This document shows positions 1-51,671 of a stretch of 64,000 nucleotides of DNA, piece by piece. Source of the stretch: Candidatus Kaiserbacteria bacterium. GTDB lineage: Bacteria > Patescibacteriota > Minisyncoccia > Phycocordibacterales > Phycocordibacteraceae. Both the position numbers and the translations under genes were made by a program. Each line of letters opens with the position of its first letter. Within the stretch, counting starts at the first letter, position 1. Where the stretch lies: assembly GCA_963813065.1 (NCBI GenBank), contig CAWEXP010000006.1:55779-119778 (forward strand), given 5' to 3'. The notes below the pieces were generated by a model. The model was not told the DNA's origin. It did not search any database and was given only the letters and a program-made list of their open reading frames with translations.

Positions 1-24
1 CATCGCTCTCGAACGGCGGCTAAC

Positions 25-282
25 ATGACTTTTGCAAATTGGGTCAATAGCATCATCGGCGCGCTCAACACGATCGTCGTGCCGATCATCTTCGCGCTCG
101 CCTTTATCTCCTTCCTCTGGGGCGTCGTGAATTATTTCTTCCTCCATCCGGGCGACGAGTCCAAGCGCGCCGAGGGTCGCCAGTTCGTCTTGTGGGGCAT
201 TCTCGGGATGGTCGTCCTCTTCTCGGTCTGGGGAGTCGTCAATATATTGTTATCCACGCTCGGCATCGCGCCCTCGGCGTAG
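25..282 (+). CDS. TrbC/VirB2-like T4SS pilin family small membrane protein (paralog 1)
   Basis: 85 aa with two hydrophobic helices; conserved core VVPIIFALAFISFLWGV...LWGILGMVVLFSVWGVVNIL shared with the next four ORFs; resembles the CPR-type T4SS pilin family. Confidence 0.55.
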   Translation: MTFANWVNSIIGALNTIVVPIIFALAFISFLWGVVNYFFLHPGDESKRAEGRQFVLWGILGMVVLFSVWGVVNILLSTLGIAPSA

Positions 283-300
283 TATGCGATACTTACCTCT

Positions 301-639
301 ATGAACTTCTCGCTTATCATTTCTTCGGGTAGTACGTGCACGGGAGCTATCTGTAATCTCGCGAACACCATCCTCTATCTTATTAACTATGTCGCGGTGC
401 CGGTGCTCTTCGCGCTCGCCTTTATCGTCTTCCTTTGGGGCATTGCGAGCGCCTACATTTTCTCGCACGGTGATCCAGACAAGGTGGCAGAGGGCCATAA
501 GCTGGTGCTCTGGGGCATCATCGGCTTCGTCGTGATGATCTCGCTCTGGGGCCTGGTCAATGTCGTCTCCTCGACCTTCGGCCTCTCGGGCTATGGCGCG
601 CCGCCGCTCCCGACCAGTAATCACTCGGTGGTCCTATGA
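301..639 (+). CDS. TrbC/VirB2-like pilin family protein (paralog 2)
   Basis: Same two-helix core (VPVLFALAFIVFLWGI ... LVLWGIIGFVVMISLWGLVNV) as paralog 1, in tandem. Confidence 0.55.
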   Translation: MNFSLIISSGSTCTGAICNLANTILYLINYVAVPVLFALAFIVFLWGIASAYIFSHGDPDKVAEGHKLVLWGIIGFVVMISLWGLVNVVSSTFGLSGYGAPPLPTSNHSVVL

Positions 640-1754
640 GCGGCATCAACACCTCGTATCTCCAGGGTTACGAATCGAGCATCGTCGGCATCATCAACGG
701 TATCCTCGTCCCGCTCCTGATCGCGGTTGCCTTTATCGTCTTCCTCTGGGGCGTCTACAACTACTTCATCGCGGGCGCTGCTAATCCCGATAAGCGACAA
801 GAGGGAACGCAGTTTGTCTTGTATGGCGTTATCGGTCTCGTGATTATCTTCTCGGTCTGGGGCCTGGTGCAAATATTCCAAGGTACGCTCGGACTCTCGG
901 CCGGTACCATGCCCGCATATCCGACTCTAGGCACGCCGAGTTCAAACGCGGTCAATGCCGCGACGGGCGCCGTCACAGGCGCGGCGGCTACGGTCCCGGC
1001 CGGTGCGACAGTCACCGGCTACACGGCGACCGGTCAGCCAATTTATTCTGCTCCCGCGGGCACGACGATTCCGGGTTACGTCATTACCGGTACTACCGCG
1101 ACCGGTCAGCCGATCTATTCGCCCGCATCAGCGACCGGCTCCGGCTCGGGTGGCAATGATGGAACTGTCGGACAAGGAGGCAACTGCGAAAACAACGCAC
1201 AGGCTTGTTCTTCAGGATACATATGTCAAGTTAACAACAATGGTAATGACACTTGTGTTTCAGCAACGAGTGCAACAGGGCAAATCGCCTGCGACACGGG
1301 CTCCGTTCCCGCTGGAACCCAGTGCGCAAAGTGTTCAAATGGAGAAACTGCCGATACAGGAACTGATTGTCCAACCGGCAGCTCTGTAGTGGTGCCACAG
1401 GACAATTCCCTTGCAGCAGGAGGAGATTGCGAGGAGAATATAAATGCCTGCCAGTCCGGGCTTATCTGTCAGCAGATCGCAAACGGCGATGACACGTGTG
1501 TATCACCAAATAGCAGTCCAGGAGATGGAACGCTTGGAGCAGGAGGGGATTGTGAACAAAATGCTAATGCTTGTTCTTCAGGTTATTCGTGCCAGCAAAA
1601 CGCAAATGGCGACGACACGTGTGTAGCGTCTGGCGGCGCAACAGGACAGATTGCGTGTGACGCAGGCTCGGTTCCAGCTGGTCAGAGTTGTGTCTCATGT
1701 TGGGATGGCAGTACAGCCGATACTGCAGGTGATTGTCCCGCAAATCCTAATTAA
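636..1754 (+). CDS. TrbC/VirB2-like pilin family protein with long Gly/Thr/Cys-rich repeated C-terminal extension (paralog 3)
   Basis: N-terminal 110 aa carry the same pilin core. C-terminal ~260 aa contain three ~30-aa repeats GG(N/D)CExNxxAC(S/Q)SGxxCQ..NG(N/D)DTCV and two repeats ATGQIACDxGSVPAG..C..C..G.TADT..DCP. DNA from ~1140-1750 is visibly AT-richer than the flanks. Start codon overlaps the paralog-2 stop. Confidence 0.55.
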   Translation: MSGINTSYLQGYESSIVGIINGILVPLLIAVAFIVFLWGVYNYFIAGAANPDKRQEGTQFVLYGVIGLVIIFSVWGLVQIFQGTLGLSAGTMPAYPTLGTPSSNAVNAATGAVTGAAATVPAGATVTGYTATGQPIYSAPAGTTIPGYVITGTTATGQPIYSPASATGSGSGGNDGTVGQGGNCENNAQACSSGYICQVNNNGNDTCVSATSATGQIACDTGSVPAGTQCAKCSNGETADTGTDCPTGSSVVVPQDNSLAAGGDCEENINACQSGLICQQIANGDDTCVSPNSSPGDGTLGAGGDCEQNANACSSGYSCQQNANGDDTCVASGGATGQIACDAGSVPAGQSCVSCWDGSTADTAGDCPANPN

Positions 1755-1853
1755 AAACTGTGCGGTTTATTGATTATCCCCACATGCGCGAGAAATGCAT
1801 TGACCAGGCGCACGGGAGCGTTACACTACTAGAGTTATTCACTTACCCATACT

Positions 1854-2231
1854 ATGAAAAAAGCCCTCGTACCCGTTCTCGGAACTCTCGCGGCATTCGC
1901 TCTGCCGCTCGTTTCTTTCGCCGCTATCAACAACATCGCGGATGCCGGTTCCTTCTTTATCAACACGGTCAACAATATCGTCGTTCCGGTGCTCTTCGCG
2001 CTCGCCTTCATCGTCTTCCTCTTCGGCGTGTTCGAGACTTTCATTTGGGGTGCCAATAGCGAAGAGGTCAGAGAGAAGGGCAAGAACCTCATGCTCTGGG
2101 GCCTCATCGGATTCTTCGTCATGGTCTCGGTCTGGGGCTTGGTGAACATCCTCACGGGCACGATCTCCTTCGGTAACAACTCCGGTCCGACCGGCGGCAC
2201 GCCGACGGCAGGTGTCCAGGTCGGCGGCTAA
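1854..2231 (+). CDS. TrbC/VirB2-like pilin family protein (paralog 4) with cleavable signal peptide
   Basis: MKKALVPVLGTLAAFALPLVSFA signal-like N-terminus followed by the same core (VVPVLFALAFIVFLFGV...LMLWGLIGFFVMVSVWGLVNIL). Confidence 0.55.
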   Translation: MKKALVPVLGTLAAFALPLVSFAAINNIADAGSFFINTVNNIVVPVLFALAFIVFLFGVFETFIWGANSEEVREKGKNLMLWGLIGFFVMVSVWGLVNILTGTISFGNNSGPTGGTPTAGVQVGG

Positions 2232-2529
2232 CTCTATGTTGAACGCGGCCGCCGCCGCTTCTGCGGGGAATCCAGTGCTCACTGGATTCCTTCAGCGCGT
2301 CGTAGTGCAAATCATCAATCCGATTATTCTCCTCCTCGCGGCGGGCGCGTTCGTGGTTTTCCTCTGGGGCGTGTTCGAGTTCATCCGCAACGCGGGCGAC
2401 GAGAAGGCGCGCCTCGAGGGCCGGAGCGCCATCCTTTGGGGCTTCGTTGGACTCGTGATTATCTTCGGCGCGTATGGACTCATCAACGTCGTGCTCACGA
2501 CCTTCAATATTCCAAACATCACCCATTAG
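2212..2529 (+). CDS. TrbC/VirB2-like pilin family protein (paralog 5)
   Basis: Core IILLLAAGAFVVFLWGV...AILWGFVGLVIIFGAYGLINVV. The true start may be the internal Met at ~2236. Confidence 0.5.
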   Translation: MSRSAANSMLNAAAAASAGNPVLTGFLQRVVVQIINPIILLLAAGAFVVFLWGVFEFIRNAGDEKARLEGRSAILWGFVGLVIIFGAYGLINVVLTTFNIPNITH

Positions 2530-2611
2530 TGCTGGGGGAGAGACTTGAACTCTCAACCCTTACGGGACATGGTCCTAAGCCATGCGCGTATACCAATTCC
2601 GCCACCCCAGC
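2530..2611 (-). tRNA. tRNA-Leu (anticodon TAG)
   Basis: Reverse complement folds as a type II tRNA: acceptor GCTGGGG/CCCCAGC, anticodon loop CTTAGGA, long variable arm, T-loop GAGAGTTCAAGTCTCTC. Confidence 0.8.
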
Positions 2612-2700
2612 GTTCCAATCAGATTAACATAGCATAAGTCTTGAAACCTAGGAGAATGCTATGGTTTTATGGGTTGTCATATGGTAACCTATAGAATACT

Positions 2701-2976
2701 ATGCCAACCAATAAAAATGTCGGCTACCAGACGTTTATTTCAACCTCTGAACTGGCGAGGCTTATGGGTGTTAGTCGGCAAGCAATTCTGAAAAAAATAA
2801 AAACCGGCAATATACATGCCCAAAAAGTCGGAAGGAATTACATCATACCGGCTGAAGAATTTGCTTCCGCGGTCGGAGAGTTTGTTTCTCAGAAGAAAAA
2901 AGAAGAAATTGAACGTGTGGTGAAAAAAGCGGTTAAAGAATACCGAGAGACGCTTCGTCTACTCGGGCGTGAATAA
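2701..2976 (+). CDS. HTH DNA-binding protein (excisionase/HTH_17-like); candidate antitoxin partner of the downstream Doc
   Basis: 91 aa with helix-turn-helix signature SELARLMGVSRQAILKKIK. Ends 4 nt before the Doc gene. Local AT-rich patch. Confidence 0.45.
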   Translation: MPTNKNVGYQTFISTSELARLMGVSRQAILKKIKTGNIHAQKVGRNYIIPAEEFASAVGEFVSQKKKEEIERVVKKAVKEYRETLRLLGRE

Positions 2977-2979
2977 GGT

Positions 2980-3444
2980 ATGGCGAGAAGGCCGATCAAG
3001 TCGCTATCGGTTGTTGAGGTTGAATATGTTGCGCACCGTCTTGCGCAAGAGTTGATGGATTATGGCGAGCCCATACCGCCGTTCAATACTCGTTTTCCAG
3101 ATCGTCTTGAAAGTTGCTTGAAAACTCCTTTCCAGAAGTTCGACAATAAAAGTCTTTATGCGGGCCTTGTGCTTAAGGCGGCAATGTTGTTCTACTTGAT
3201 GGTAAAAAATCATCCTTTTCAAAACGGCAACAAGAGAGTTGCGGTATTAACGTTGCTTGTTTTCCTCAGCGAGAATGGGCGTTGGTTGAAAGTAGCCAAT
3301 ATTACGCTCTACACATTTGCCAGAGAGATAGCAGAGAGTGACTCTGCGAAAAGCAGAGAAACAATAAGACACATCGTGGATTTCATAGAAAATTATGCCA
3401 TCCACTCTTCTGAAGATGAAATTGTGGAGGATGAAACGTTCTAA
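2980..3444 (+). CDS. Fic/Doc family toxin (death-on-curing-like)
   Basis: 154 aa with the Doc-type Fic motif HPFQNGNKRVAV (HxFx(N/D)GNKR). Confidence 0.6.
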   Translation: MARRPIKSLSVVEVEYVAHRLAQELMDYGEPIPPFNTRFPDRLESCLKTPFQKFDNKSLYAGLVLKAAMLFYLMVKNHPFQNGNKRVAVLTLLVFLSENGRWLKVANITLYTFAREIAESDSAKSRETIRHIVDFIENYAIHSSEDEIVEDETF

Positions 3445-9915: not shown

Positions 9916-12601
9916 ATGCCTCCATTCAACCACTTCACTACCAAAGCCAAAGAAGCCGTTCGTCGCGCGCACGAGCTCGCTATTGAGCGTGGGCAGAATC
10001 ACGTGTCCTCGCTCCACCTCCTCGCCGCCTTAGTGCTCCAAGAGGAGTCACTCGTCTTCTCGATGCTCGACCGGATGGAAGTTGACCCCATCATGCTTGC
10101 CGATTCGGTACTCGAAAATCTCGAAGCGCCGGAGTCCGCCTCAGTGCTCTCGCCCTCCTATCAGATTTATCTCACGCCCGATCTCGCCAAGGCGCTCGAG
10201 GCGGCAGGGAAGGTCGCGGCGCGGATGAACGAAAATTTCGTTGGTACCGAACATCTTTTTATCGCGCTCATCGAAGAGCCGGGTCCGGCGATGGAGATTC
10301 TCGCGCGTTTCCGCATCGACAAGGATTCTGCACTCGCGGTTTTGAAAGAATTGAAGAATAGTAAGGACGGCCAGATTACGGAGCCGAAGCGTTTCCGCGC
10401 GCTCTCCAAATATGCGCGTAATCTCACCAAGATGGCCGCCGACAATAAGCTCGACCCGGTCATCGGTCGCGACCAGGAGATTAATCGCGTCATCCAGATT
10501 CTCGCGCGCCGTACTAAGAATAATCCGGTCCTCATCGGCGAGCCGGGCACGGGCAAGACTTCTATTGCAGAAGGATTGGCGCTGCGCATGGCGACCAACG
10601 ACGTGCCGGAATCGATTCGCGGCAAGGAACTCCTCTCGCTCGATCTCGGTCTGCTTATCGCGGGCACCAAGTATCGCGGCGAATTTGAAGAGCGATTGAA
10701 AAATGTGATGAAGGAAGTCGAGCGCGCAGAAGGGAAGGTTATCCTTTTCGTCGACGAGCTCCACACCATTGTCGGCGCGGGTGGGGCAGAGGGCTCGCTC
10801 GATGCCTCGAACATGCTTAAGCCGGCGCTCAGCCGCGGCGAGCTCCGCATGATTGGTGCAACAACGTTGAAGGAGTATCAGAAATATGTCGAGAAGGATG
10901 CGGCGCTCACGCGGCGATTCCAGCCGGTCTTTGTCGCGGAGCCGACCGTCGAAGATGGTATCGCGATTCTGCGTGGCCTGCGCGACAAGTACGAGCTTTT
11001 CCACGGCGTGCGGATTACCGATGGCGCCATTGTCGCCGCGGTGGATCTCTCCGCGCGCTATATCAGCGATCGCTATTTGCCCGACAAGGCGATCGACCTG
11101 ATTGATGAAGCCGCCTCTGGCCTGCGTATCGCGCTCGAGAACAAGCCGCCGCTCCTCGAAGAAACCGACCGCAAAATTCGCCGCCTCGAGATTGAACGCC
11201 AAGCACTCTCGAAGGATGCCGAGACCGAGCAGAGCAAAGAGATTACCGAGCGCCTGAAGGCAATTGAGAAAGAAATTGCTGACCTGAAAGAGAAGACGAG
11301 CGAGCTCGAGCTGAAGTGGAAAAATGAAAAAGAAGTGCTTGAGGGTATCCGCGCCGAATAAGACTGAGCTGGAAAAATTGAAGACAGCAGGCCGACCTCG
11401 CCGATGTCGCCGCAGACCTCGGCACCGTCGCCGAGATTCGCTACGGCAAGATCCCGCAATTGCAAAAAGACTTGGAAGTGAAACTGAAGCGCTTGAAAAC
11501 GCTCCAGAAGTCGCGCCGCGTGTTGAATGAAGAAGTGACCGAGCACGAGATTGCGGCGGTTGTCGGTCGCTGGACCGGCATTCCCGTTTCCAGGATGCTC
11601 GAAGAAGAGGCGACGAAGCTCTCGCGCATGGAGGAGACGTTGAAGAAGACCATCATCGGCCAGGACGCGGCGATCCAGAAGGTCGCGGATGCGGTGAAGC
11701 GCTCGCGCGTCGGCATCAGCGACCCGAATCGGCCCATCGGCTCGTTCCTCTTCCTCGGGCCCACCGGCGTCGGCAAGACCGAGCTCTCGCGCCAGCTGGC
11801 GGAATTTATGTTCAACGATCCCGAGGCTCTGGTGCGCGTCGACATGAGCGAATTTATGGAGAAACACTCAGTGGCGAAACTCATTGGCGCACCGCCGGGC
11901 TATGTCGGCCACGAAGAAGCGGGCTCGCTGACCGAGCGCATGCGTCACCGCCCGTATGCCGTCATTCTCTTCGACGAAATCGAGAAGGCGCATCCGGAAG
12001 TCTTTAATATCCTCCTCCAAGTGCTCGACTCGGGGCACCTCACCGACTCAAGGGTCGCAAGGTCAATTTCAAGAACACGATTATCATTCTCACGAGCAAC
12101 ATCGGCGGGGAATACGTCGATCGCCTCGCGCATATCGGATTCGGCGCTACGGATGCCACCGACGCGACGCGCTACGAGGAGACGAAAGAAAAGGTGATGA
12201 ACGCTCTGAAGGATCACTTCCGTCCCGAGTTCCTCAATCGCCTCGACGACATCATCATCTTCGATGTGCTCTCGCGGGAGGCGCTCGCCGGTATCGTCGA
12301 GAAACAGGTCGCCGAAGTGGTCGGCCGACTCGCCGAGAAAAAGATTTCGCTCGCTATCACGCCCGAGGTGCGTGCCTGGCTCGCGGAGAAGGGGTACAGC
12401 CTGCAGTACGGCGCGCGCCCTCTGCGCCGCACCATCCAGGACAAGATCCTCACGCCGCTCGCGTCGCTGATGATCTCGCATGGCGTCAGCGAGGGTGGCA
12501 CGGTCACGGTCTCGTTGAAAAATGGCGAACCGAATTTTGAAGTCCAGAAACGCGCCCCGCGTGCGGTCAAAGCCTCGCGCGCGACTGCCGCGGTTGCCTA
12601 A
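9916..12601 (+). CDS. clpB: ClpB/ClpC-like AAA+ chaperone ATPase, interrupted by three apparent 1-nt frameshifts
   Basis: Clp_N repeats; AAA-1 Walker [10 protein letters not shown]; middle-domain coiled coil; AAA-2 Walker [10 protein letters not shown]; ClpB_D2-small in the third ORF. Frame breaks at ~11362, ~11400 and ~12050 (the last in the A run of tcaaggg). Confidence 0.8.
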
Positions 12602-14061: not shown

Positions 14062-15072
14062 ATGCGTTCTCGCTTGCCGCTTTTGGCACTGCTCGCCACC
14101 CTCGGGTCTTTTGCGCTCCCACTCTTTGCGCATGCCACGGGCATCCCGTACTTCGGCCCTGTGGTGCCGAGCAATGCCGCCACCTGCGCCGCTGGCTGGC
14201 AGAGCCTCATCCAACTCATCAACAACGCCGTCGCGGTGGGCATCACCATCGTCCTGCTCTTCATCGCGCCCATCATGATCGCCTACGCCGGTTTTCTCTA
14301 TGTGGTGAATCCGGTTAATCCGAGCGGAAGGAGCCAGGCGAATAAGATGATGCTCAATGTGGTCACGGGCATCGTTATCTCGCTCGCGGCCTGGCTCATT
14401 GTGGATGCGGTTCTCACGACGCTTACCAATCAGGGCGGCCTAAATGTTTGGACCGCCGGCATGTTTGGCGACGGCACCACGCCCTGCCTCATTACCGATG
14501 CCAGTTTGAATACTTTTAATCAGAGCACGGGACAGACGGTCACGAGCGCGAGCGCGAACAGCGCGGCGCTCTCGGGTACCGGTGTCGGCTCCTGCGATCC
14601 CATCGAGGTCGGTGTCGGCGCGTCGAATGGCGGGTATGCCACAACTGCGGCAGAGGACCAGGCGCTTGCCTGCATCGCGCGCTACGAGAGTTCCTGTGGC
14701 ACCAAGAATCCGCCCTACAATCTCAACTCGAGCTGGAACACTCCAATAGCTAGCGCGGGTGGCAAAGCATCAACTGCGGCCGGTGCATTCCAGGTGCTTC
14801 TTGCTTCGAATCATACCTGCTACGACAATAACGCCTGTGATGCGGCGGTAAACTTGCCTCCCGGCACGCCGCTCAATTGCAACAAGGCGTTTACCTCGCT
14901 CGGCCTTCCGATTGATGGTCCCGCTCTGCAACAATGCGAACAAGCGGCGGGAAATGTCGCGTGCAGTTCGGCGGCCGCAGCCTGTCTGCTCACCCAGCAA
15001 ACTTTTCTCAAAGCCTATGCGGCCGATTCCTATGCGCAGAGTTGCGCGAGCCAGGCCGGCTACAGTGGCTAA
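14062..15072 (+). CDS. Fusion protein: signal peptide + pilin-like two-helix membrane domain + C-terminal lytic transglycosylase (SLT/VirB1-like) domain
   Basis: N-terminus MRSRLPLLALLATLGSFALPLFAHA. Hydrophobic core AVGITIVLLFIAPIMIAYAGFLYVV, pilin-paralog-like. C-terminal SLT-type signature ARYESSCGTKNPPYNLNSS...AGAFQVL (ES...NP...S..GA.G.xQ). Confidence 0.5.
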   Translation: MRSRLPLLALLATLGSFALPLFAHATGIPYFGPVVPSNAATCAAGWQSLIQLINNAVAVGITIVLLFIAPIMIAYAGFLYVVNPVNPSGRSQANKMMLNVVTGIVISLAAWLIVDAVLTTLTNQGGLNVWTAGMFGDGTTPCLITDASLNTFNQSTGQTVTSASANSAALSGTGVGSCDPIEVGVGASNGGYATTAAEDQALACIARYESSCGTKNPPYNLNSSWNTPIASAGGKASTAAGAFQVLLASNHTCYDNNACDAAVNLPPGTPLNCNKAFTSLGLPIDGPALQQCEQAAGNVACSSAAAACLLTQQTFLKAYAADSYAQSCASQAGYSG

Positions 15073-26907: not shown

Positions 26908-29418
26908 ATGGGCCAAATATCGAAAAAACGGGACAATAAAGACATTTCTCTCGAGCAGTACCAACATACAACTGTGAAGCGGGCCAATAATCCGCAAGTC
27001 GGACTCGTTAGCGGTACCTTGGATTCAAAGCCGAAAAAGAAAACATACCAACATGACCCGTATATTGATCCAACATTGTCTTGGGCGGGTAAGGCCGAAG
27101 GTGCTTCGTTTGGTGTTGATACTGTCTCGCTTCATATCCACGAACGGATAGATCCAAAAAGAATAATAAAACAAGTCCTAAAAAAGACTGAAGAAACAGT
27201 TAAATTGCAGCCATCACTTTTTGAACAACCGAGCGAAAATTTGAATACAGAAAAAGAGTTTGATTTTTATGGCCACACCAAAAACTGGTCAAATCGTCTT
27301 ATCGCCGGAGACAGCTTGCTCGTCATGAACTCTCTTCTGGAAAAAGAGAAAATGGCTGGGAAAGTACAGATGATTTATATAGATCCCCCGTATGGGATTA
27401 AATACAACTCAAACTTTCAACCTTTCACAAATAAGAGAGACGTGAAAGACAGGGACGACGACAGCATTCCTGCTGAACCAGAGATGATTAAAGCGTTTCG
27501 AGACACGTGGGAGCTTGGCATCCACAGCTACCTCACATATTTGCGAGATCGTTTACAGCTTTCGCACGACTTGCTGCATGAAAGCGGTAGTATTTTCTTG
27601 CAGATCTCCGACGAGAACGTACACCACATTAGAGAGTTGCTAGATGAGATTTTCGGGATGGAAAACTTTGTGGCGCAGATCAACTTCCGTAGCATGTCCC
27701 CGCTCGGTCAGTCTGGGATGGCGAGGGTCTACGATTACATACTCTGGTACGCCCGCGACAAGAAGAAAATGAAATACCGATCTATTTTTATAAACAGAGA
27801 AATCGAGGAGGAGCCCGAATTTTGCTATCTCGATACTGGCGATGGTTTGTATAAGAAGTTGAACCGCGAGGAAATAGCGGCTTTGCCTGCCGATCAAAGA
27901 AAAAAGATCTTCAAGAGGTCAACCCTCACGTCTTCTGGCTACACGCCCTCTTGCACCTATCCTTTCGAGTTGGGTGGGAAGGAATATCGTCCGCTTAGTG
28001 GGAAAAGTTGGCGAACTCATCCGGAGGGAATGAAGAAACTGATTGCCAAGCACCGCATCTTTGTACTCGGCCAGAATCCGTACTTCAAGCAGTACCACTC
28101 TGATTTTCCGTTCGTGCAACTCGAAAACGGATGGAAGGATACGGCCGCAGGATTTAGTGATCAGAAAATATATGTTGTGCAGACAAACAATAAAGTGATC
28201 GAGCGATGTGTTCTGATGGTCACGGATCCAGGAGATTTGGTCCTGGACCCGACTTGTGGCTCTGGCACGACAGCGTATGTAGCAGAACAGTGGGGTCGTC
28301 GTTGGATCATGTGCGATACTTCCCGTGTGGCAATCCAACTTGCAAAACAACGGTTGATGACCAGTCAATTTGATTATTACGAAATGGCACAACAAGAAGA
28401 AGGTGTCTCGTCTGGATTTAAATATAAAACCGTTCCACACACCACACTTGGAAGTGTTGCGAACAACGAACTAACCAAAGAAGAGACTCTCTATAATCAG
28501 CCATTTGTCATAAGAGATAAAGTTCGGGTGACTGGACCATTCACAGTAGAGGCCGTTCCGGGCATCCGCACCAAGCCAATTGAAGGAAATCTCCCGGATG
28601 TATCTGACAAAACAAATCCAACGAATCCGATTTCCGAGAAATTGAACGACTACCTCGATAGCATTCGTGCTTCAGGCATTCGCTCATACCACAATGAAGG
28701 AATTACATTCAACAGCGTAGAAGTTTCCGAAGGATTTAATGAAATTCATGCATTTGGAAATATTGATAGCAATGGGGAATATAAAAAGTGTGCAATAGTC
28801 TTTGGCCCTGATTATGCTCCCATGGAACAGACCCAAATTGAGCGAACAATGGACGAAATTAGAAATATGGCTGAGAAACCAAACATGGTCATCTTTTGTT
28901 CGTATGCTTTTGACCCCGAAGCATCAAAGGATGTTGATAACATAAAAATATCCGGTCTCCAGATTTTGAAAGCTCAAATGAATACGGACTTGCTCACTAA
29001 AGATTTAAAGAAAAAAGCAAACGCAGACAGACCATTTTGGCTCATTGGGGAACCAGATATTGAAATCAATAAAACCAAAGAAGGGAAATTCCAAGTGGAG
29101 GTGAAGGGATTCGATTACTATGATCCTCGTACCCAGGAGCTCAAGGGTGGCAGTACAGACAAAATTGCTGTCTGGATGATTGATACAGATTACGACAATA
29201 GATCCCTATTCCCCTCACAGATATTTTTCCCAATGCAAGATCAGAAAAGAGATTGGACTAAACTTGCAAAAGCGTTAAATGGGAGTGTAGACGAAGAGTT
29301 ATTGGAGCAATATACTGGCACAACATCAATACCTTTCGCATCAGGCGATAAACGAACCATAGCGGTAAAAATAGTCGATGACCGCGGTGTTGAGATGTTA
29401 GTGGTCAAGAAAATATAG
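26908..29418 (+). CDS. mod: Type III restriction-modification Mod subunit (N6-adenine/N4-cytosine beta-class DNA methyltransferase) with long C-terminal extension
   Basis: Motif IV IYIDPPY precedes motif I DPTCGSGTT (beta-class order). 836 aa, with ~350 aa after the MTase core. 4-nt gap to res. Confidence 0.75.
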   Translation: MGQISKKRDNKDISLEQYQHTTVKRANNPQVGLVSGTLDSKPKKKTYQHDPYIDPTLSWAGKAEGASFGVDTVSLHIHERIDPKRIIKQVLKKTEETVKLQPSLFEQPSENLNTEKEFDFYGHTKNWSNRLIAGDSLLVMNSLLEKEKMAGKVQMIYIDPPYGIKYNSNFQPFTNKRDVKDRDDDSIPAEPEMIKAFRDTWELGIHSYLTYLRDRLQLSHDLLHESGSIFLQISDENVHHIRELLDEIFGMENFVAQINFRSMSPLGQSGMARVYDYILWYARDKKKMKYRSIFINREIEEEPEFCYLDTGDGLYKKLNREEIAALPADQRKKIFKRSTLTSSGYTPSCTYPFELGGKEYRPLSGKSWRTHPEGMKKLIAKHRIFVLGQNPYFKQYHSDFPFVQLENGWKDTAAGFSDQKIYVVQTNNKVIERCVLMVTDPGDLVLDPTCGSGTTAYVAEQWGRRWIMCDTSRVAIQLAKQRLMTSQFDYYEMAQQEEGVSSGFKYKTVPHTTLGSVANNELTKEETLYNQPFVIRDKVRVTGPFTVEAVPGIRTKPIEGNLPDVSDKTNPTNPISEKLNDYLDSIRASGIRSYHNEGITFNSVEVSEGFNEIHAFGNIDSNGEYKKCAIVFGPDYAPMEQTQIERTMDEIRNMAEKPNMVIFCSYAFDPEASKDVDNIKISGLQILKAQMNTDLLTKDLKKKANADRPFWLIGEPDIEINKTKEGKFQVEVKGFDYYDPRTQELKGGSTDKIAVWMIDTDYDNRSLFPSQIFFPMQDQKRDWTKLAKALNGSVDEELLEQYTGTTSIPFASGDKRTIAVKIVDDRGVEMLVVKKI

Positions 29419-29422
29419 GTGT

Positions 29423-32152
29423 ATGGAATCTGTAGACAAAAAACAAGGATTCGTAATCAACTCACCATACTTCGAACCGAAGTATCATTTTGAATACGAC
29501 GAAAATAGCGAGAGTTATCACAGAGAGGATGGCCGCAGAAAGGCCGGGTACTATGCAACTGTAGGTAAACAAGAAGTGGGGAAAGGGGCGACGCAATTCC
29601 TAGAGTTAGAGCTGGCTAGCATGATACGGCCACGAGTTAAAGAGTGGAAAGAAAAAGGATATCCAAATGTGACTTCAACTACAAAAAAGCTCCTGGAGCA
29701 CTGGAACAGATTTGATCAAGAGGGATTTGAGCAGGATGGTCAGAGGTACTTCTGGTGTCAGATAGAGGCGATTGAAACTATCATCTGGCTTGTTGAGGCT
29801 CCGGATGCCGTAAAAGTAGGAATAAATCTAAAAGACAGGAGCGATAGTGATTGGATGCGGGCCTGTACAAAGCTGGCGACGGGTACGGGAAAAACGGTTG
29901 TGATGGCGATGATTATTGCATGGCAGGTGCTCAATAAAGTTGCTAACCCAAAAGATACGAGATTTACGAAAAATATACTCGTGATGGCACCTGGCATTAC
30001 CGTGCGACATCGTCTCGAAGTGCTAATTCCAAGTAACGAGTCAAATTACTATGACGTCTTCAATATCGTACCCGCTTCACTTAAAGAATATCTATATCAA
30101 TCAAAAATAGCGATACTCAACTGGCAGTCAGTTGCTCCTAAGAAGAAGGAGTCCTTACCGAAAGTAATGCGAGATATGATGGGAGAGGAGAGCGATGGGG
30201 CATTTACGAGAAGAGTTCTATCTGAACTTCCGGGAGACGCACCGATATTGGTAATAAACGACGAGGCGCATCACTGCCATAGGCATACTGCTGAGATAGG
30301 AAAATCAAAAGAGGATAAAGAACAAGAAAAGAAAGAAAATGAAGAAGCGACAGTTTGGGTACAAGGTTTAGATAAAATACATAAAGCACGGGGAATTATT
30401 ACCGCTTATGACATGTCCGCAACTCCTTTTGTTCCGAAAGGTCGTAGCTCCAATACGGGATTCGAACTGTTTAACTGGATTATATCTGATTTTGGTCTGC
30501 ATGATGCCATCGAATCCGGTTTGGTAAAAACACCAACAATTGCAGTAAGGGACAGTTCGTATTCGTCAGAAAAAGTGGCCGGAGACAAGTCAAAGTTGTT
30601 CCACATCTATTATGAAGAAGGTATTCGGGAAGATCTCAATAAAAAATGTGAACCGAATGTAGATTTACCTGACCTTGTGCGAAGTGCGTTCAAGATCCTC
30701 TCAACAGATTGGTTGGCAACTAAAAACGAATGGAGTAAAGGAGTACCACCATCGATGATAGTGATTTGTAATAATACCTTTACATCTCAGCGAATTGAAT
30801 ACTCCATTTTAAATAGTCATTTAGGCGTATCAGAGATGGCAGATAAGAGTAAGGTATTGAGAGTCGATAGCACGGCTGAAGACATAGAAGATGAATCTCT
30901 TCGAGAAAAGTTCAATACCGTTGGTAAACAGGGGAAGCCAGGTGCAGATGTCGAATGTGTGATTGGTGTGAATATGCTCTCAGAAGGATGGGATGCAAAT
31001 AACGTTAAACAGATACTCGGCTTGCGCGCCTTTACATCACAATTGCTTTGTGAGCAGGTTGTAGGCAGAGGGCTCCGTAGAATGAGCTACGATATTGATG
31101 AAAGTACAGGGTTATTGAAACCAGAGTATGTAACAGTTTTCGGTATTCCCTTCAGCTTCTTACCAATAGAGGGTAAGGAGGGACCAGATCCTGGCCCAGA
31201 AAAGCCAAAAACTTTCGTACAGGTGCTACCACAGAAAAGACAATATCAAATTCTATTTCCCAACATCTTGAGGGTGCAAAAAGAGACAGAGCACTTTGTC
31301 GATATTGATTGGAAGAAAACAGAAAAATTGGCCTTGTCTCCAACAGAGAACCCTGTGTGGGTTCAGGTTGCTCCCACCATTGATCGCCCCGACTTGTCTC
31401 AGTCTCAAAAGATGAGTTCGATTCAAGAATATCTCGGTAAAGACTATCGCTTAAAACAAAGCGTTTTTGCGATTACTTCGAGTATCAAAAACGGTTTGGA
31501 CGACACTTGGAAGAATATAGATGATGGTAATAAATTCCAACAAATATTTAAAATTGTTTCTGATTTTATCGAGAAGAATGTAACTATAGATGCTGACAAA
31601 AGTAATCACGACGTGTATAAAAATATTCTTATTGGTTTAAACACCACCAAAATAACAGCAATGGTTAGACAGGCGATAAACTTGAGTCAAGACACGAAGT
31701 CTTATCCAATACCCGATCCAATCAACAAATTCAAAACAACATCAGTAATGACGCCGTGGTACACAACCCGGGATACCTACTCTTCGCCTGAAATGAAATG
31801 CCACATTAGTCATCTCGTACAAGATAGTAGATGGGAAAATATAGGGAAGATTCTCGATAATGAAATCGATGATGTTACGGCTTGGGTCAAGAATGACCAT
31901 TTGGCTTTCACCATTCCCTACATACACAAAGGGTTGATGCGATCTTTTTTCCCCGATTTCGTTATTCAATATAAAGGGAACCGACATCTACTTCTGGAAA
32001 TAAAAGGAAAGGAGAGAGAACAAGACCAAACTAAATGGGATTCGGCGAAGCTGTGGTGTGAAGCCTTAAATTCCGACAAAGATTCTTGGGGAGAGTGGCA
32101 GTTTAGAGTTGTGAAAAATAAGCCAAATATTTCCGACCTAAAATGGAAATAA
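29423..32152 (+). CDS. res: Type III restriction enzyme Res subunit (SF2 helicase + PD-(D/E)xK nuclease)
   Basis: Walker A LATGTGKT; DEAH box INDEAHHC; helicase motif VI QVVGRGLRR; C-terminal PDF...LEIKGKE nuclease motif. Confidence 0.75.
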   Translation: MESVDKKQGFVINSPYFEPKYHFEYDENSESYHREDGRRKAGYYATVGKQEVGKGATQFLELELASMIRPRVKEWKEKGYPNVTSTTKKLLEHWNRFDQEGFEQDGQRYFWCQIEAIETIIWLVEAPDAVKVGINLKDRSDSDWMRACTKLATGTGKTVVMAMIIAWQVLNKVANPKDTRFTKNILVMAPGITVRHRLEVLIPSNESNYYDVFNIVPASLKEYLYQSKIAILNWQSVAPKKKESLPKVMRDMMGEESDGAFTRRVLSELPGDAPILVINDEAHHCHRHTAEIGKSKEDKEQEKKENEEATVWVQGLDKIHKARGIITAYDMSATPFVPKGRSSNTGFELFNWIISDFGLHDAIESGLVKTPTIAVRDSSYSSEKVAGDKSKLFHIYYEEGIREDLNKKCEPNVDLPDLVRSAFKILSTDWLATKNEWSKGVPPSMIVICNNTFTSQRIEYSILNSHLGVSEMADKSKVLRVDSTAEDIEDESLREKFNTVGKQGKPGADVECVIGVNMLSEGWDANNVKQILGLRAFTSQLLCEQVVGRGLRRMSYDIDESTGLLKPEYVTVFGIPFSFLPIEGKEGPDPGPEKPKTFVQVLPQKRQYQILFPNILRVQKETEHFVDIDWKKTEKLALSPTENPVWVQVAPTIDRPDLSQSQKMSSIQEYLGKDYRLKQSVFAITSSIKNGLDDTWKNIDDGNKFQQIFKIVSDFIEKNVTIDADKSNHDVYKNILIGLNTTKITAMVRQAINLSQDTKSYPIPDPINKFKTTSVMTPWYTTRDTYSSPEMKCHISHLVQDSRWENIGKILDNEIDDVTAWVKNDHLAFTIPYIHKGLMRSFFPDFVIQYKGNRHLLLEIKGKEREQDQTKWDSAKLWCEALNSDKDSWGEWQFRVVKNKPNISDLKWK

Positions 32153-34234: not shown

Positions 34235-34494
34235 GTGGGTAGAGGCTTGCGCCTCTCATACGAGTTTCCCCGTATGGCCGGTAAAGACGACCCCACATGA
34301 TGGGTTTCCGCGTCTTTACCGGACTTCTCCAGCCATGCCCAGCCCGGAGGCTGAGTTTAGGCCATATCGCACCCTTGTATCGTACTCGGTCTGGAGCTTA
34401 TGTGAAGGCGGAACGTGCTTTCTACAAAAAACCAGAAACAGAAAAAACCATAGATTCTATGGCTTCTTCTGAGGTTATATTAACTGGCCTTCGG

Positions 34495-39725: not shown

Positions 39726-40757
39726 ATGTCATTCTTTTCTCCCAAACTCGGTATCGATCTCGGGACGACCAACGTGCTGGTCTTCGTGCCGGGCAAGGGC
39801 GTCATCATCAATGAGCCCTCGGTCGTCGCGGTGGGGAAGAACGAGGGCCCGCGCGGCGGGAAGAATAAGATTCTGGCGATTGGCATCGAGGCCAAGAAGA
39901 TGATTGGTCGCACGCCCGACGACATCATCGCCTATCAGCCGATGAAGGACGGCGTCATCGCTGACTACCGAATCACGGAGGTGATGTTGCGCTATTTCAT
40001 CCGCAAGGCGCTCGGCCGCTGGAACCCGTTCAAGCCGACGGTGCTGGTGTCGGTGCCCGCAGGCGTCACCTCGACCGAGAAGCGCGCGGTCATCGAGGCG
40101 GCGATGAAGGCGGGCGCGAAAAACGCGTTCGTGGTCAAGGAGCCGATTCTCGCCGCGATTGGTGCGGGCATCCCCATTCACGAGCCGATGGGCCGAATGG
40201 TCGCCGATATTGGTGGCGGTACCATCGACGTCGCCGTGATCTCGCTCGGCGGCATCGTCGCCTCGACCTCGGTCAAGTGCGCAGGTAATCGCCTCGACCG
40301 CGCGATTGTCGATTATATTAAGAAACAGCACAACCTCTCGATTGGCGACAAGACCGCCGAAGAAGTGAAAATAAAAATTGGCGCCGCAGTGCCGATTAAC
40401 GAAGAGCTCGCTCTGCCGATCAAAGGCCGCGACCTGGTCTCTGGCCTGCCGCGCACCATCGAACTCTCGACCAATGAAGTCGCGGGCGCGATGGCGCGTG
40501 AGCTCCGCGAGATGACGCAAGCAATCCGTAAGGTCTTGCAGGAGACGCCGCCCGAGCTCGCTTCGGACATTATCGACAATGGCATCATCCTCACCGGCGG
40601 CTCGAGCCAGCTCCGCCAGATGACCGAGCTCGTGTATCGCCGCACGGGCGTCGTCGCCAAGCTCGCGACCGATCCCTACTACTGCGTCGCGCGCGGCACT
40701 GGCATCGCGCTGAAACATTTGCATACGTATCAGAAAAGTATTTTAGCGAAGCAATAA
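39726..40757 (+). CDS. mreB: Rod shape-determining protein MreB (actin-like), copy 1
   Basis: LGIDLGTTNVLVFV phosphate-1 motif and MreB-wide similarity. Confidence 0.85.
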   Translation: MSFFSPKLGIDLGTTNVLVFVPGKGVIINEPSVVAVGKNEGPRGGKNKILAIGIEAKKMIGRTPDDIIAYQPMKDGVIADYRITEVMLRYFIRKALGRWNPFKPTVLVSVPAGVTSTEKRAVIEAAMKAGAKNAFVVKEPILAAIGAGIPIHEPMGRMVADIGGGTIDVAVISLGGIVASTSVKCAGNRLDRAIVDYIKKQHNLSIGDKTAEEVKIKIGAAVPINEELALPIKGRDLVSGLPRTIELSTNEVAGAMARELREMTQAIRKVLQETPPELASDIIDNGIILTGGSSQLRQMTELVYRRTGVVAKLATDPYYCVARGTGIALKHLHTYQKSILAKQ

Positions 40758-46670: not shown

Positions 46671-47909
46671 ATGAGGCAATCACAACTCTTCACCAAAGCG
46701 CGACGCGAAGCGCCGGCCGACGAGGTCGCGAAGAACGCCCAGCTCCTCGTCCGCGCGGGGTATCTGCATAAGGAGATGGCCGGCGTCTACGATTATCTGC
46801 CGCTCGGCCTGCGTGTGTTCAAGAAGATTGAGCAAATTATTCGCGAAGAGATGGACGCCATCGGCGGACAAGAACTCTTCATGACCACGCTCCAGGATCC
46901 CGAGCTCTGGAAGAAAACGAATCGTTGGGACGACGCGGTCGTCGACAACTGGTTCAAGAGCGAACTCGCGGCGGGCGGCGAGATTGGCATTGCGAATACG
47001 CACGAGGAAGTCATCACGCGCATTCTCACCAACTACGTCAGCTCGTACAAAGACTTGCCGCTCTACGCCTATCAGTTCCAAAATAAATTTAGAAACGAAT
47101 TGCGCGCCAAGAGCGGCATCATGCGCGTGCGCGAGTTCGTGATGAAAGATTTGTATTCCTTCAGCCGCTCTGAAGAAGAGTTTAGACTGTTTTATGAAAA
47201 GGCTGCGGAGGCCTATACCAAGATATTCGAGCGTGTGGGCCTCGGCGCGATGACGTATCGCACCATCGCCGCGGGTGGCTCATTCACCACGGGGCTCACC
47301 GACGAGTTCCAGACCATCTCTTCGGCGGGCGAAGACACTATTTATGTTGACGAGAAGAAAAAAATTGCAGTGAATAAAGAAGTGCTGAATGATGAAGTCC
47401 TGCAGAAATATAATCTTGATCGGGCCGATCTCGTTGAACACAAATCCATCGAAGTCGGCAACATTTTCCCGCTCGGGACGAAATATTCTTCTGCACTCGG
47501 CCTTCTCTATACCGACGCAGAAGGGAAGAAGCACCCGGCGATTATGGGCTCCTATGGCATTGGGCTCGGCCGCTTGCTGGGCACGATTGTTGAAGTCTTT
47601 GCCGACGAAAAGGGTATTGTCTGGCCGGAGGCAGTTGCACCATTCTCGTATCATTTGGTCTCGCTCGGCAAGCCAGGCGACGAACTCTCGAAGATTGCCG
47701 ACACTCTATATGAGCAGGCGCAGAAGAAGGGTGCGAGCGTGCTCTACGACGACCGCGACGCCAGTGCCGGGGCCAAATTCGCCGAGAGCGACTTGCTCGG
47801 CATTCCGACGCGGATTGTCGTCGGGCGCGATGCCGCGAGTGGCGTGGTCGAAGTGGTCGACCGTGCGAGTGGGAAGGTAGAGAAGAAAAAGTATGCCGAA
47901 ATTTTCTAA
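46671..47909 (+). CDS. proS: Prolyl-tRNA synthetase (short form without INS domain)
   Basis: N-terminus MRQSQLFTKARREAPADEVAKNAQLLVRAGYL...YDYLPLGLRV matches ProRS; class II motifs; C-terminal anticodon-binding domain. Confidence 0.75.
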   Translation: MRQSQLFTKARREAPADEVAKNAQLLVRAGYLHKEMAGVYDYLPLGLRVFKKIEQIIREEMDAIGGQELFMTTLQDPELWKKTNRWDDAVVDNWFKSELAAGGEIGIANTHEEVITRILTNYVSSYKDLPLYAYQFQNKFRNELRAKSGIMRVREFVMKDLYSFSRSEEEFRLFYEKAAEAYTKIFERVGLGAMTYRTIAAGGSFTTGLTDEFQTISSAGEDTIYVDEKKKIAVNKEVLNDEVLQKYNLDRADLVEHKSIEVGNIFPLGTKYSSALGLLYTDAEGKKHPAIMGSYGIGLGRLLGTIVEVFADEKGIVWPEAVAPFSYHLVSLGKPGDELSKIADTLYEQAQKKGASVLYDDRDASAGAKFAESDLLGIPTRIVVGRDAASGVVEVVDRASGKVEKKKYAEIF

Positions 47910-48945
47910 AAATTCTTTTTTCTCAAGCGACATTGGCATTGATCTCGGAACGGCGAATTCGCTGGTCTATGTGCGCGGGCGCGGAATTATTCTGAACGAA
48001 CCCTCGGTTGTTGCGGTCAATGACAAGACCGGCCAGGTGGTCGCCATCGGTGCCGACGCGCGTCGCATGCTCGGTAAGACGCCGCCCCACATCCGCACGG
48101 TTCGGCCGCTCTCGCACGGCGTCCTCTCTGATTTCGAAGTGACGGAAGAATTGCTCACGCACCTCATCAACAAAGCGCAGAACGGTCGTGCGCGCCTCTT
48201 CGGTCCGCGCGTGGTGGTGGGCGTGCCGACGGGCGTGACGAACGTGCAGAGCCGCGCGGTGCGTGACGTCACCGAGAACGCCGGTGCACGGCAAGTATTC
48301 ATTCTCGAAGAACCGGTCGCGGGTGCTATCGGCGCCAAGCTCCCGACCGGCGAAGCCATCGGTACGATGGTGCTCGACATCGGTGCGGGCACGACCGACA
48401 TCGCCGTCATCTCGCTCTCGGGCACCGTCGCATCGAGGAGTTCGCAGATCGCGGGAGATCGTTTCAATGAAAATATTATCGATTTTGTTCGGAGTGAATT
48501 TAAGCTGGGCATCGGTGAGCGAACCGCCGAGGAAGTGAAGGTCGCCATCGGCGCCGTTCTTCCACTTTCTGAAACGCTTTCGCGGAGCGTGCGCGGTCGC
48601 GACCTCGCGACGGGTCTGCCGCGCGAGATTGTCCTCACCGATGCACACATTCGCGAAGCGCTCGCGCCCTCGCTCGATGGGTTGATGGACGCGATGAAGG
48701 ACGTCATCGAGCGCACGCCGTCAGAACTTTTGTCAGACGTACTCGAACGCGGCGTGACCGTCTTCGGCGGCGGCGCACTGCTCCGTGGCCTGCCGCCGGT
48801 GCTCGCCAAGATGCTCGGTGTGCCGGTCAAGGTCGCGCCGGAGCCTCTGACCGCCGTCGTGCGCGGTACCGGTATGGCGACCGAGGACCCCGAGCTCTAC
48901 GCCGATTTTTTCATCGATGAAGAAGACATTCTTAGCGAAGCGTAA
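47893..48945 (+). CDS. mreB: MreB-like actin homolog, copy 2
   Basis: IGIDLGTANSLVYV...; full-length similarity to copy 1. Confidence 0.8.
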   Translation: MPKFSKNSFFSSDIGIDLGTANSLVYVRGRGIILNEPSVVAVNDKTGQVVAIGADARRMLGKTPPHIRTVRPLSHGVLSDFEVTEELLTHLINKAQNGRARLFGPRVVVGVPTGVTNVQSRAVRDVTENAGARQVFILEEPVAGAIGAKLPTGEAIGTMVLDIGAGTTDIAVISLSGTVASRSSQIAGDRFNENIIDFVRSEFKLGIGERTAEEVKVAIGAVLPLSETLSRSVRGRDLATGLPREIVLTDAHIREALAPSLDGLMDAMKDVIERTPSELLSDVLERGVTVFGGGALLRGLPPVLAKMLGVPVKVAPEPLTAVVRGTGMATEDPELYADFFIDEEDILSEA

Positions 48946-49705
48946 CGCCTGGCTCTCGCCCTCGGGTGTCTCGTGGGGCGCGGGAGCGCTCCTCTTTGTG
49001 CTCGCACTACTCCTCGTGCGTATCCTATTTCCGGGATTCGTTCTGGAAATCACTGCGCCCGTATTCGGCGTGGGTGATTGGATAGCGGGCGAAGTACAAA
49101 ATCTCTCCTCCGGGTTCGATTCGAATGCAGGGCTCGCACGCGCGAATGCAGAATTGCTCGCGCAAAATGAGGCGCTCTCGCTCGAGAATCGTACTCTTGT
49201 CGAGCAGGGTGCCGACACTGCCAAACTCATGGCACCCATGAATTCGGCACACGATGTTATCGCAGGCGTCATCCTGCGCCCGCCCGAATCGCCCTATGAC
49301 ACACTCGTGATTGGCGCCGGGAGTGCAGAGGGCATTGCGCAGGGGAGGGAAGTCTTCGGCCCCGGTGGCGTACCGCTCGGCACTATCTCGAGTGTCTCCA
49401 CTGATGATTCGCGTGTCACGCTTTTCTCTGCGACAGGCGTTCAGACTCCGGCATGGGTCGGCAGTACACGGATTCCACTCAATCTCATTGGTAGTGGCGG
49501 CGGCACCTTTGTCGCGACCGTGCCACGCACTGCGCCCATCGCGGTCGGCGATCTCGTACTCGTGGGAGCTCCAGGCGCAATTCCTATCGGTAGCGTCACG
49601 CGCATCGATACCGACTCGAGTTCGCCGACACTGTCGCTCCGTATCGTTCCGGCAATTAATCTCTTCTCGCTCACGTGGATGCGGGTTGGTTCGATAGTTC
49701 CATGA
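48917..49705 (+). CDS. mreC: Rod shape-determining protein MreC
   Basis: N-terminal TM, coiled coil (ANAELLAQNEALSLENRTL), beta-domain; position between mreB and the mreD-like gene. Confidence 0.7.
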   Translation: MKKTFLAKRNAWLSPSGVSWGAGALLFVLALLLVRILFPGFVLEITAPVFGVGDWIAGEVQNLSSGFDSNAGLARANAELLAQNEALSLENRTLVEQGADTAKLMAPMNSAHDVIAGVILRPPESPYDTLVIGAGSAEGIAQGREVFGPGGVPLGTISSVSTDDSRVTLFSATGVQTPAWVGSTRIPLNLIGSGGGTFVATVPRTAPIAVGDLVLVGAPGAIPIGSVTRIDTDSSSPTLSLRIVPAINLFSLTWMRVGSIVP

Positions 49706-49947
49706 TTCGCCCGGCGCTCATCGTCCTCGCGCTCGTCGCCGTCATCTGTACGCCCTGGCCTTTCGCATTCGTGCTAGCCATTGTTGCGGCATTCGCGTCA
49801 CCTCTGGCACCGCTCGCGGTCGGCATCTTTGCTGATACGCTCTATTATGCACACGGCGTGCCTTGGGCAACCGTGCTCGGCCTCTTCGTGACACTCGCGG
49901 CTTTCGGCGTGCACGCGCTCCTCGAGACGCGTATCATGCGTGCATGA
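49702..49947 (+). CDS. mreD: MreD-like small membrane protein
   Basis: Hydrophobic 80-90 aa ORF between mreC and pbp2; overlapping stops/starts. Confidence 0.45.
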   Translation: MIRPALIVLALVAVICTPWPFAFVLAIVAAFASPLAPLAVGIFADTLYYAHGVPWATVLGLFVTLAAFGVHALLETRIMRA

Positions 49948-51614: not shown

Positions 51615-51671
51615 AAGCGAGTAGTGTATAACCCGCACGCACATCCCATAGGCTTTGCTATAGTAGTACGT

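Follow-up and report, generated by a model that had tools for sequence, protein, structure and literature searches.

Pilin Arrays of the Patescibacteria and the Locus Studied Here

Tandem arrays of VirB2-like genes are known from the Patescibacteria, where 441 arrays of 2–11 genes have been described in 383 assemblies (PMC12102498). Members of one array share on average 25% and at most 54% identity, and since only 1135 of 1948 assemblies have an array near virB4, that proximity is not obligatory (PMC12102498; PMC10633639). In the type IV secretion system (T4SS) cluster of Southlakia epibionticum, six PF18895 genes (SEML1_0014–0019) lie beside VirB6, PrgI and VirB4 and are essential (PMC10633639; PMC12857230); transposon sequencing data on epibiotic growth come from this species only. 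No adhesin, PrgB-like or other, has been detected in Patescibacterial systems (PMC12102498). Here we describe a six-gene array, itself of this already published kind, at the start of 64,000 nucleotides (nt) of DNA from a Candidatus Kaiserbacteria bacterium (contig CAWEXP010000006.1, positions 55,779 to 119,778 of the forward strand; the whole stretch is called the window). One of its members, p3, carries a large Cys-rich extension.

The closest described system is the Saccharibacterial six-gene array (SEML1_0014–0019; the "Sec-secreted array" of TM7x; Wang et al. 2023; Quiñonero-Coronel et al. 2025; FEMS 2025 review). Both arrays consist of six divergent PF18895 hairpins encoded in tandem on one strand, some of them weakly similar to TrbC/VirB2. 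Unlike the Saccharibacterial genes, those described here do not stand beside VirB4, VirB6 and PrgI but in the order gyrA–methyltransferase–solute-binding protein (SBP)–pilins–infB, and one member bears a 290-amino acid (aa) Cys-rich extension whose composition is foreign. The methyltransferase, an orphan SBP and p0–p5 make up a conserved chromosomal operon, and the region covers its distal five-sixths.

Our preferred reading, to which we assign a probability of about 0.5, is that this operon encodes a heteromeric T4SS pilus or stalk. Its bulk subunit would be p4, and p3 (in other species p0 as well) would display variable host-binding heads. The operon would supply six distinct, non-interchangeable hairpins of the VirB2/TrbC type, each with its short positive loop in the cytoplasm and both ends outward; a monoderm-type Patescibacterial T4SS (VirB4, VirB6, PrgI) encoded elsewhere in the genome would assemble them, and the product would reach the host cell. 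The bulk role is proposed for p4 on account of its Sec signal peptide and its conservation, the highest among the subunits, and assembly by a T4SS is suggested by homology with the essential six-pilin set in the S. epibionticum cluster. T4SS assembly, filament formation, subunit roles and binding would all be read across from the Saccharibacterial cluster and from general pilus biology.

Composition of the Array

Five plus-strand open reading frames (ORFs) with common core motifs were found in the ORF listing (25–282, 301–639, 636–1754, 1854–2231 and 2212–2529). An earlier note, made from the window sequence by itself, had described these five as the array. The ORF listing and the alignment agree with it on coordinates and core motifs, but the array has six genes, of which the window cuts off the first except for bases 1–23. 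We name them p0 to p5 in gene order (the note's "paralog 3" is p3); p0 was read from an overlapping Logan contig, L001, which is identical to the window across 5646 nt. The features are as follows.

1–23, plus strand: 3′ end of p0 (…SLSNGG-stop), in another frame; full gene at L001 2428–2772, 114 aa, Sec signal peptide
25–282, plus strand: p1, 85 aa, bare pilin-like hairpin without signal peptide, PF18895 43.5 bits
301–639, plus strand: p2, 112 aa, pilin-like hairpin with one Cys pair in the N-tail, PF18895 40.1 bits
636–1754, plus strand: p3, 372 aa, decorated pilin, start overlapping the p2 stop (ATGA), PF18895 34.9 bits
1800–1827, plus strand: sigma-70-like promoter match TTGACC-16-TACACT, weak (9/12), in the 99-nt gap between p3 and p4
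1854–2231, plus strand: p4, 125 aa, canonical Sec signal peptide (…VSFAA|IN), PF18895 37.2 bits
2236–2529, plus strand: p5, 97 aa, bare, without signal peptide, PF18895 30.9 bits; alternative GTG start at 2212

For p5, the ATG at 2236 is a more likely start than the GTG at 2212. Promoter and terminator scans gave counts within shuffle expectation, and the promoter-like site before p4 is a lead only. Stop and start codons overlap in L001 both from the methyltransferase to the SBP gene and from the SBP gene to p0. Identity to p1 is 37%–48% for the other window pilins and 22%–48% between paralogs of this genome overall, so that the locus has the features of published Patescibacterial arrays, six tandem PF18895 genes of low mutual identity. 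The earlier note had called such a run unusual. This does not hold, because tandem arrays, including the Saccharibacterial six-gene sets, have already been published; the same set also recurs in at least 58 of the 80 related loci analyzed below.

Family Membership, Fold and Topology

All five window genes pass the gathering threshold of PF18895 (T4SS_pilin; 26.6 bits) with 30.9–43.5 bits, as does p0 with 32.5 bits, and the assignment to a pilin family made in the earlier note is thereby borne out. None of the six reaches the 27.9-bit threshold of TrbC/VirB2 (PF04956): p0 comes closest (24.8 bits, E = 2.5e-5), p5 scores 12.7 bits and the others have no match. The best NCBIfam match for all six is NF045849, the Mbov_0395 family of Mycoplasma integrative and conjugative elements. 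The two share a VirB2-like hairpin and a monoderm lineage, but the scores here (24.5–36.8 bits) are below the cutoff of 40, and the genes are part of the chromosomal core rather than of a mobile element. Searches of PDB sequences with the pilin profile and with the p3 Cys region returned nothing meaningful.

In an AlphaFold2 (AF2) model of p3, built on a shallow alignment of 15 sequences, residues 6–46 and 51–84 form two helices packed as a hairpin, with block-mean predicted local distance difference test (pLDDT) scores of 76–95, in agreement with the two-helix fold proposed in the earlier note. Two hydrophobic segments are present in all six proteins. Lys and Arg in the hairpin are confined to the loop between the helices in all six, with none in the tails, and the 287-residue tail of p3 has one Lys/Arg against 22 Asp/Glu. 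By the positive-inside rule, this distribution indicates a cytoplasmic loop with both termini facing outward, the established topology of VirB2/TraA.

The likeness to VirB2, TrbC and TraA thus extends to the two-helix hairpin, the basic loop, the outward termini and the small bare subunits, and further to the signal peptides of p0 and p4 and the near-threshold PF04956 score of p0. Unlike those pilins, the proteins here fall below the PF04956 cutoff, signal peptides are missing from four of six, six subunits take the place of one major pilin, no T4SS is adjacent, and the host is a monoderm. No canonical VirB2/TraA pilin that carries a large additional domain is known to us.

Signal peptides are distributed by position. 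Among orthologs they occur in 80 of 83 p4 proteins, none of 71 p5 proteins, nine of 71 p1 proteins and most p0 proteins; in this genome a signal-peptide-like N-terminus is found on p0 and p4 only, with none on p1, p2, p3 or p5. P0004, a homolog 69% identical to p3, has a 20-aa Sec signal peptide ahead of the sequence where p3 begins MSGINTSY…, while P0007 and P0009 lack one, like p3 here. Close relatives must therefore export the N-tail in different ways.

Six Fixed Positions in a Conserved Neighborhood

When one genome of each GTDB species was scanned, with p0 and p5 left out of the query alignment, 402 loci encoding relatives of these proteins were obtained. The best 80, all from metagenome-assembled genomes titled Kaiserbacteria, Paceibacterota or Parcubacteria, were analyzed by searching their six-frame ORFs with a hidden Markov model (HMM) built from the six cores. 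Nearly all untruncated loci among these 80 have six matches in a row. By best match the order is p0-p1-p2-p3-p4-p5 in 58 of 80, the remainder being mostly cut contigs or five-gene variants; orthologs of p1, for example, hold position 2 in those 58 loci. Mean identity across species to the window protein at the same position is 59%–76%, versus 22%–48% between the paralogs here, with p4 the most conserved member (mean 76%). Because cross-species identity at each position exceeds within-genome paralog identity, the six genes are, as judged from these sequences, ancient and fixed positional orthologs and not a recently diversifying family, and the earlier note's picture of a diversified paralog run has to be given up.

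The same comparison bears on the explanation suggested for Patescibacterial arrays (PMC12102498), namely antigenic or host-range variation through recently duplicated, interchangeable pilin variants, as proposed for the VirB2 paralogs of Bartonella and Anaplasma. It would accord with the low identity between paralogs, but we consider it very improbable for this locus: each position is a conserved orthogroup, signal peptides are position-specific, and variation is concentrated in the p3 and p0 cassettes described below, not in the cores. A recent paralog expansion of this kind was rejected as largely refuted by the positional orthology.

Clustering of flanking ORFs placed the SBP directly upstream of the pilins in 75 of 80 loci, preceded by a small methyltransferase in 70, with gyrA further upstream in 57 and infB downstream. 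The SBP (L001 1130–2431, just upstream of window base 1) is an orphan, anchored by a transmembrane segment and distantly MalE-like (SBP_bac_8 71.8 bits; SBP_bac_1 49.3 bits). The window itself is ordinary chromosome, encoding initiation factor 2 (IF-2), ClpB, ParB, MreB/C, penicillin-binding protein 2 (PBP2), MraW, a Mur ligase and aminoacyl-tRNA synthetases. Holins and small bacteriocin-immunity membrane proteins were also entertained as identities for the hairpins and rejected, being contradicted by core-genome synteny over 80 species and by PF18895 membership.

Coupling to the SBP is an unexplained lead. It might mean that the hairpins and the orphan SBP form a device for nutrient capture or uptake outside any T4SS, loosely like the archaeal "bindosome", in which pilin-like machinery organizes binding proteins; the Cys-rich head would then dock to the host. 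The near-constant position of the SBP, the overlap of its stop with the p0 start and its distant relationship to MalE speak for such a device, as does the lack of any conserved gene for an ABC permease, an ABC ATPase or a T4SS within ±10 kb in the 80 loci. We nevertheless regard it as unlikely, since the homologous Saccharibacterial set sits within a T4SS cluster with no SBP reported there, no known transporter is made of such hairpins, and synteny alone is no proof of physical interaction.

The Cysteine-Rich Extension of p3

The extension of p3 begins directly beyond the hairpin and consists of a linker and a cassette of five small modules, as the earlier note had described in outline with three repeats of one kind and two of another. 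GC content at third codon positions (GC3) is given where it helps to tell the parts apart.

636–905, plus strand: p3 hairpin core, aa 1–90, AF2 helices, ending in the conserved junction motif MPAYPTLG
906–1160, plus strand: flexible linker rich in Gly, Thr, Ala and Pro, block-mean pLDDT about 39–47, GC3 0.67
1161–1751, plus strand: whole Cys-rich cassette, GC3 0.38, 84% nt identical to the closest relative (locus L084)
1176–1262, plus strand: module A1, four Cys, C-x6-C-x5-C-x9-C, block-mean pLDDT 83–89
1272–1373, plus strand: module B1, four Cys, C-x10-C-x2-C-x11-C
1419–1505, plus strand: module A2, Cys pattern A, block-mean pLDDT 63–70
1542–1628, plus strand: module A3, Cys pattern A
1638–1739, plus strand: module B2, Cys pattern B

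The protein has exactly 20 Cys, all of them within the five four-Cys modules, which follow the order A-B-A-A-B. The linker, about 85 aa long, corresponds to a disordered stretch in the AF2 model (residues 91–173), and in the cassette A1-B1 and A3-B2 are modeled as β-rich mini-domains with block-mean pLDDT of 83–90. The linker contains a twofold TG(Y)T.TGQPIYS.P repeat (1014–1048 and 1086–1120), which could be a glycosylation or binding motif; similar NG(N/Q)PIY motifs are present in the linkers of P0004 and P0006. At the DNA level the module repeats are 71%–80% identical, too diverged for Tandem Repeats Finder, which reported no repeats in positions 1–2700.

No Pfam model matches the Cys modules of p3, PF07699 and PF00020 giving no match at E ≤1, and a Foldseek search of the p3 model against PDB gave nothing at E ≤0.001 (best E 0.057). 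The non-significant local matches were to psalmotoxin (TM 0.77–0.81 over 34–35 residues), knottin toxins, CBM1 and follistatin domains, and the distant matches of the B-module profile, P0014 and P0016, carry PF07699 ephrin-receptor-like/TNFR-like repeats. With knottins, CBM1 and the TNFR/ephrin-receptor repeats (PF07699), the p3 modules share a length of 30–35 residues and disulfide-stabilized β-hairpins. Unlike those families they have no Pfam match and no significant structural match, and they contain four Cys each, whereas an inhibitor cystine knot requires six. Because the Foldseek matches are not significant, and the family domains occur only on distant matches of the B module, we give the modules no family name; the model suggests small disulfide-stabilized β-hairpin domains of the binding-module type.

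Extensions Across Orthologs

Extensions are restricted by position. C-terminal extensions of more than 50 aa are found in 23 of 77 p3 orthologs, against zero to three at each other position. Extensions with at least two Cys occur at either end of p3 (47 of 73 orthologs) and in p0 (48 of 76, of which 47 are N-terminal, in the gap between signal peptide and core), compared with four of 71 for p1, seven of 65 for p2, four of 83 for p4 and none of 71 for p5. The number of Cys is even in every Cys-containing tail listed, from 2 to 28, a pattern that would be expected of disulfide-bonded extracellular domains. The sequences of the extensions are unrelated between species, with a loose G-x-C…C-x-S-G-x-x-C…C theme recurring. 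Bare p3 orthologs end exactly at an a-P-x-(Y/F)-P-(T/K)-L motif, and extensions start directly beyond it.

The particular A-B module of p3 is rare. An exhaustive HMM search of 1.84 billion representative proteins gave 13 matches at E ≤1e-3, a word-indexed homolog search with the Cys region alone gave two, and none was found in loci L002–L081. The carriers differ in scaffold and in module number, which ranges from 2 to 7.

This p3: p3 ortholog scaffold; 5 modules
P0004: p3 ortholog with signal peptide, 69% identical; 7 modules, A-B-A-A-B-A-B
P0005: p3 ortholog scaffold; 4 modules
P0002: p0 gene of the syntenic locus L082; 4 modules, B-B-A-B, between signal peptide and core
P0001: a different, weakly PF18895/DUF4134-like pilin; 2 modules, A-B

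The cross-genome comparison that the earlier note had suggested thus finds a fixed core order with a variable number of modules, and P0004, P0005 and the 23 long-tailed p3 orthologs agree with its expectation that the extension is conserved in homologs. Modules placed at the N-terminus or at the C-terminus would be equivalent for display, since the two ends of the hairpin point to one side. In the closest relative the array has seven genes, since a further gene of the p3 type (L084 2351–2695 / L085 1828–2448) lies between p3 and p4; the Cys-rich modules of this extra gene are N-terminal.

Foreign Composition of the Cassette

The five pilin cores have GC3 of 0.72–0.83 and the p3 linker 0.67, within or near the range of housekeeping genes in the window (0.60–0.79), while the cassette stands at 0.38; the earlier note had remarked on this AT-richer stretch. 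The only other window genes with GC3 as low are an HTH/Doc pair (0.39–0.48) and a restriction-modification pair (0.40–0.46). Compared with L084, the closest relative, the cassette has 84% nt identity and uses the same codon at 0.67 of identical residues. The p3 core, p4, p5, a histidine kinase and IF-2 are 68%–76% identical to L084, with the same codon at 0.51–0.56. Deviant GC3 together with identity above that of its flanks supports the view that the cassette is an exchangeable unit, acquired horizontally and grafted on a native, conserved scaffold. The suggestion of the earlier note that the stretch was recently acquired or fast-evolving gains support from these contrasts and becomes more precise.

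On the pilus proposed here, the head of p3 would consist of the linker of about 85 aa and the five disulfide-bonded mini-domains A-B-A-A-B, beyond P-x-Y-P-T-L, and would bind the host. It would be an exchangeable cassette, horizontally acquired, whose module number varies between close relatives. The tip position and the host-contact organelle put forward in the earlier note are likewise putative.

Pilus, Complex or Anchor

Several observations weigh against a T4SS pilus. No T4SS machinery gene occurs in the 64-kb window or among the conserved neighbors within ±10 kb in the 80 loci; the Pfam scan of window ORFs, including every ORF of at least 480 aa, found no VirB4, VirD4 or VirB6, which agrees with the earlier note as to the first two. 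The array is thus one without a nearby virB4, and because of this the link to a T4SS is drawn from homology to another class. The signal peptide that is usual in VirB2/TraA is absent from four of the six subunits (p1, p2, p3 and p5), Foldseek likens the Cys modules to knottin toxins and CBM1 at non-significant levels (E ≥0.057), and the tightly coupled SBP is not accounted for by a T4SS. To our knowledge, no PF18895 pilus has been observed in any organism.

Several of these points would suit a structure that is not a filament. The six hairpins could form a fixed hetero-oligomer spanning membrane or wall, as part of a T4SS channel, or serve as a two-helix anchor that tethers extracellular domains by a long flexible leash, namely Cys-rich binders on p3 and p0 and a muramidase on a separate, seventh PF18895-type protein of the window.

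14062–15072, plus strand: pilin–lysozyme-like fusion, 336 aa, with a Sec signal peptide, a PF18895-like hairpin and a Cys-rich C-domain of about 210 aa

Its hairpin is detected by the local HMM (E = 9e-8) and scores 23.2 bits with Pfam PF18895, just under the gathering threshold. Three of the four homologs tested reach the cutoff of PF18896 (SLT_3), one of them, P0127, also that of PF01464 (SLT), and the C-domain has an invariant Glu (E209) in a YESSC motif. More than 180 clusters of homologs exist in Kaiserbacteria and Paceibacterota. Because a Foldseek search with the AF2 model gave five meaningless matches, none significant, the lysozyme-like fold is taken solely from the Pfam matches of the homologs; a PDB sequence search with the C-domain returned nothing. 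By its sequence the protein resembles a fusion of a VirB2-like anchor with a VirB1-like muramidase.

In this conserved 336-aa family a hairpin of the same type bears an enzyme domain, as would be expected of an anchor more than of a polymerizing subunit. Six fixed orthologous positions likewise suggest a complex of defined stoichiometry, the disordered linker of about 85 aa could span the cell wall, most of the subunits lack a signal peptide, and monoderm MPF_FATA-type T4SSs are generally without a pilus (PMC12102498). On the other side, the homologous VirB2/TrbC pilins do polymerize, and minor pilins with extra domains fit into filaments elsewhere. A structure other than a filament is possible but, in our judgment, doubtful.

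A heteromeric pilus would follow the same logic as VirB5 on T-pili, GspK-type and other minor pilins of type IV and type II systems, and PrgB of Gram-positive conjugation, in which a low-copy subunit presents a binding domain at the end of a filament or along it. Unlike VirB5 and PrgB, to which it has no relation in sequence or fold, the candidate binder here is fused directly to the VirB2-type scaffold.

Other Genes in the Window

The p5 stop codon is directly adjoined by a minus-strand tRNA-Leu(tag) gene, after which comes the HTH_17 and Fic/Doc gene pair (both in window 2529–3444; GC of the pair 0.42–0.43). The pair is missing from the same place in the relatives L082 and L084 and is probably a small inserted toxin-antitoxin-like element. 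The restriction-modification pair (26908–32152, plus strand) comprises an N6/N4 DNA methylase (836 aa) and, after it, a ResIII helicase-nuclease (909 aa) whose C-terminus carries a TnsA-like endonuclease N-terminal domain; given its low GC3, the system was probably acquired horizontally.

The clpB gene appears to be split over three plus-strand frames (9916–11361, 11460–12197 and 12194–12601), whereas L082 has a single 910-aa gene; frameshifts, a pseudogene or assembly errors could be responsible. A LOOT RNA (Rfam RF03000) at 34241–34363 on the minus strand scores 84 bits against a gathering score of 46.4 and adjoins a tRNA-Asn. Two MreB paralogs, MreC and a PBP2-type transpeptidase are encoded at 39726–40757 and 47893–53342, and this cell-shape gene cluster includes a 572-aa protein with a Peptidase_S74 domain (endosialidase/tail-fiber chaperone domain).

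Implications

Among the papers searchable, we found no report of a Cys-rich pilin in Patescibacteria. The p3 pilin with its exchanged, copy-number-variable cassette, the occurrence of cassettes at two of six positions, the positional orthology and the coupling to an SBP appear to be new. The published suggestion that arrays hold interchangeable variants is corrected, at least in this Paceibacteria lineage, where the six cores are fixed orthologs.

A large part of bacterial diversity belongs to the Patescibacteria, most of which apparently live attached to other cells. In the sole species tested genetically, the T4SS and its pilin set are essential, and no pilus, adhesin or substrate has yet been identified. 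Concrete candidates for host binding are offered by the hypervariable, disulfide-rich, horizontally exchanged modules that only two positions of a conserved six-subunit scaffold carry. Tentatively, the Cys-rich cassettes on p3 and p0 may be horizontally exchangeable determinants of host recognition on a Patescibacterial T4SS pilus, receptor-binding heads that lineages would swap while the six-subunit scaffold stays fixed, comparable to the tips of phage tail fibers. In that case the adhesin reported missing by surveys of these systems would be found in the cassettes, and the sequence of the cassette would be a handle for predicting the host of an uncultured bacterium of the candidate phyla radiation.

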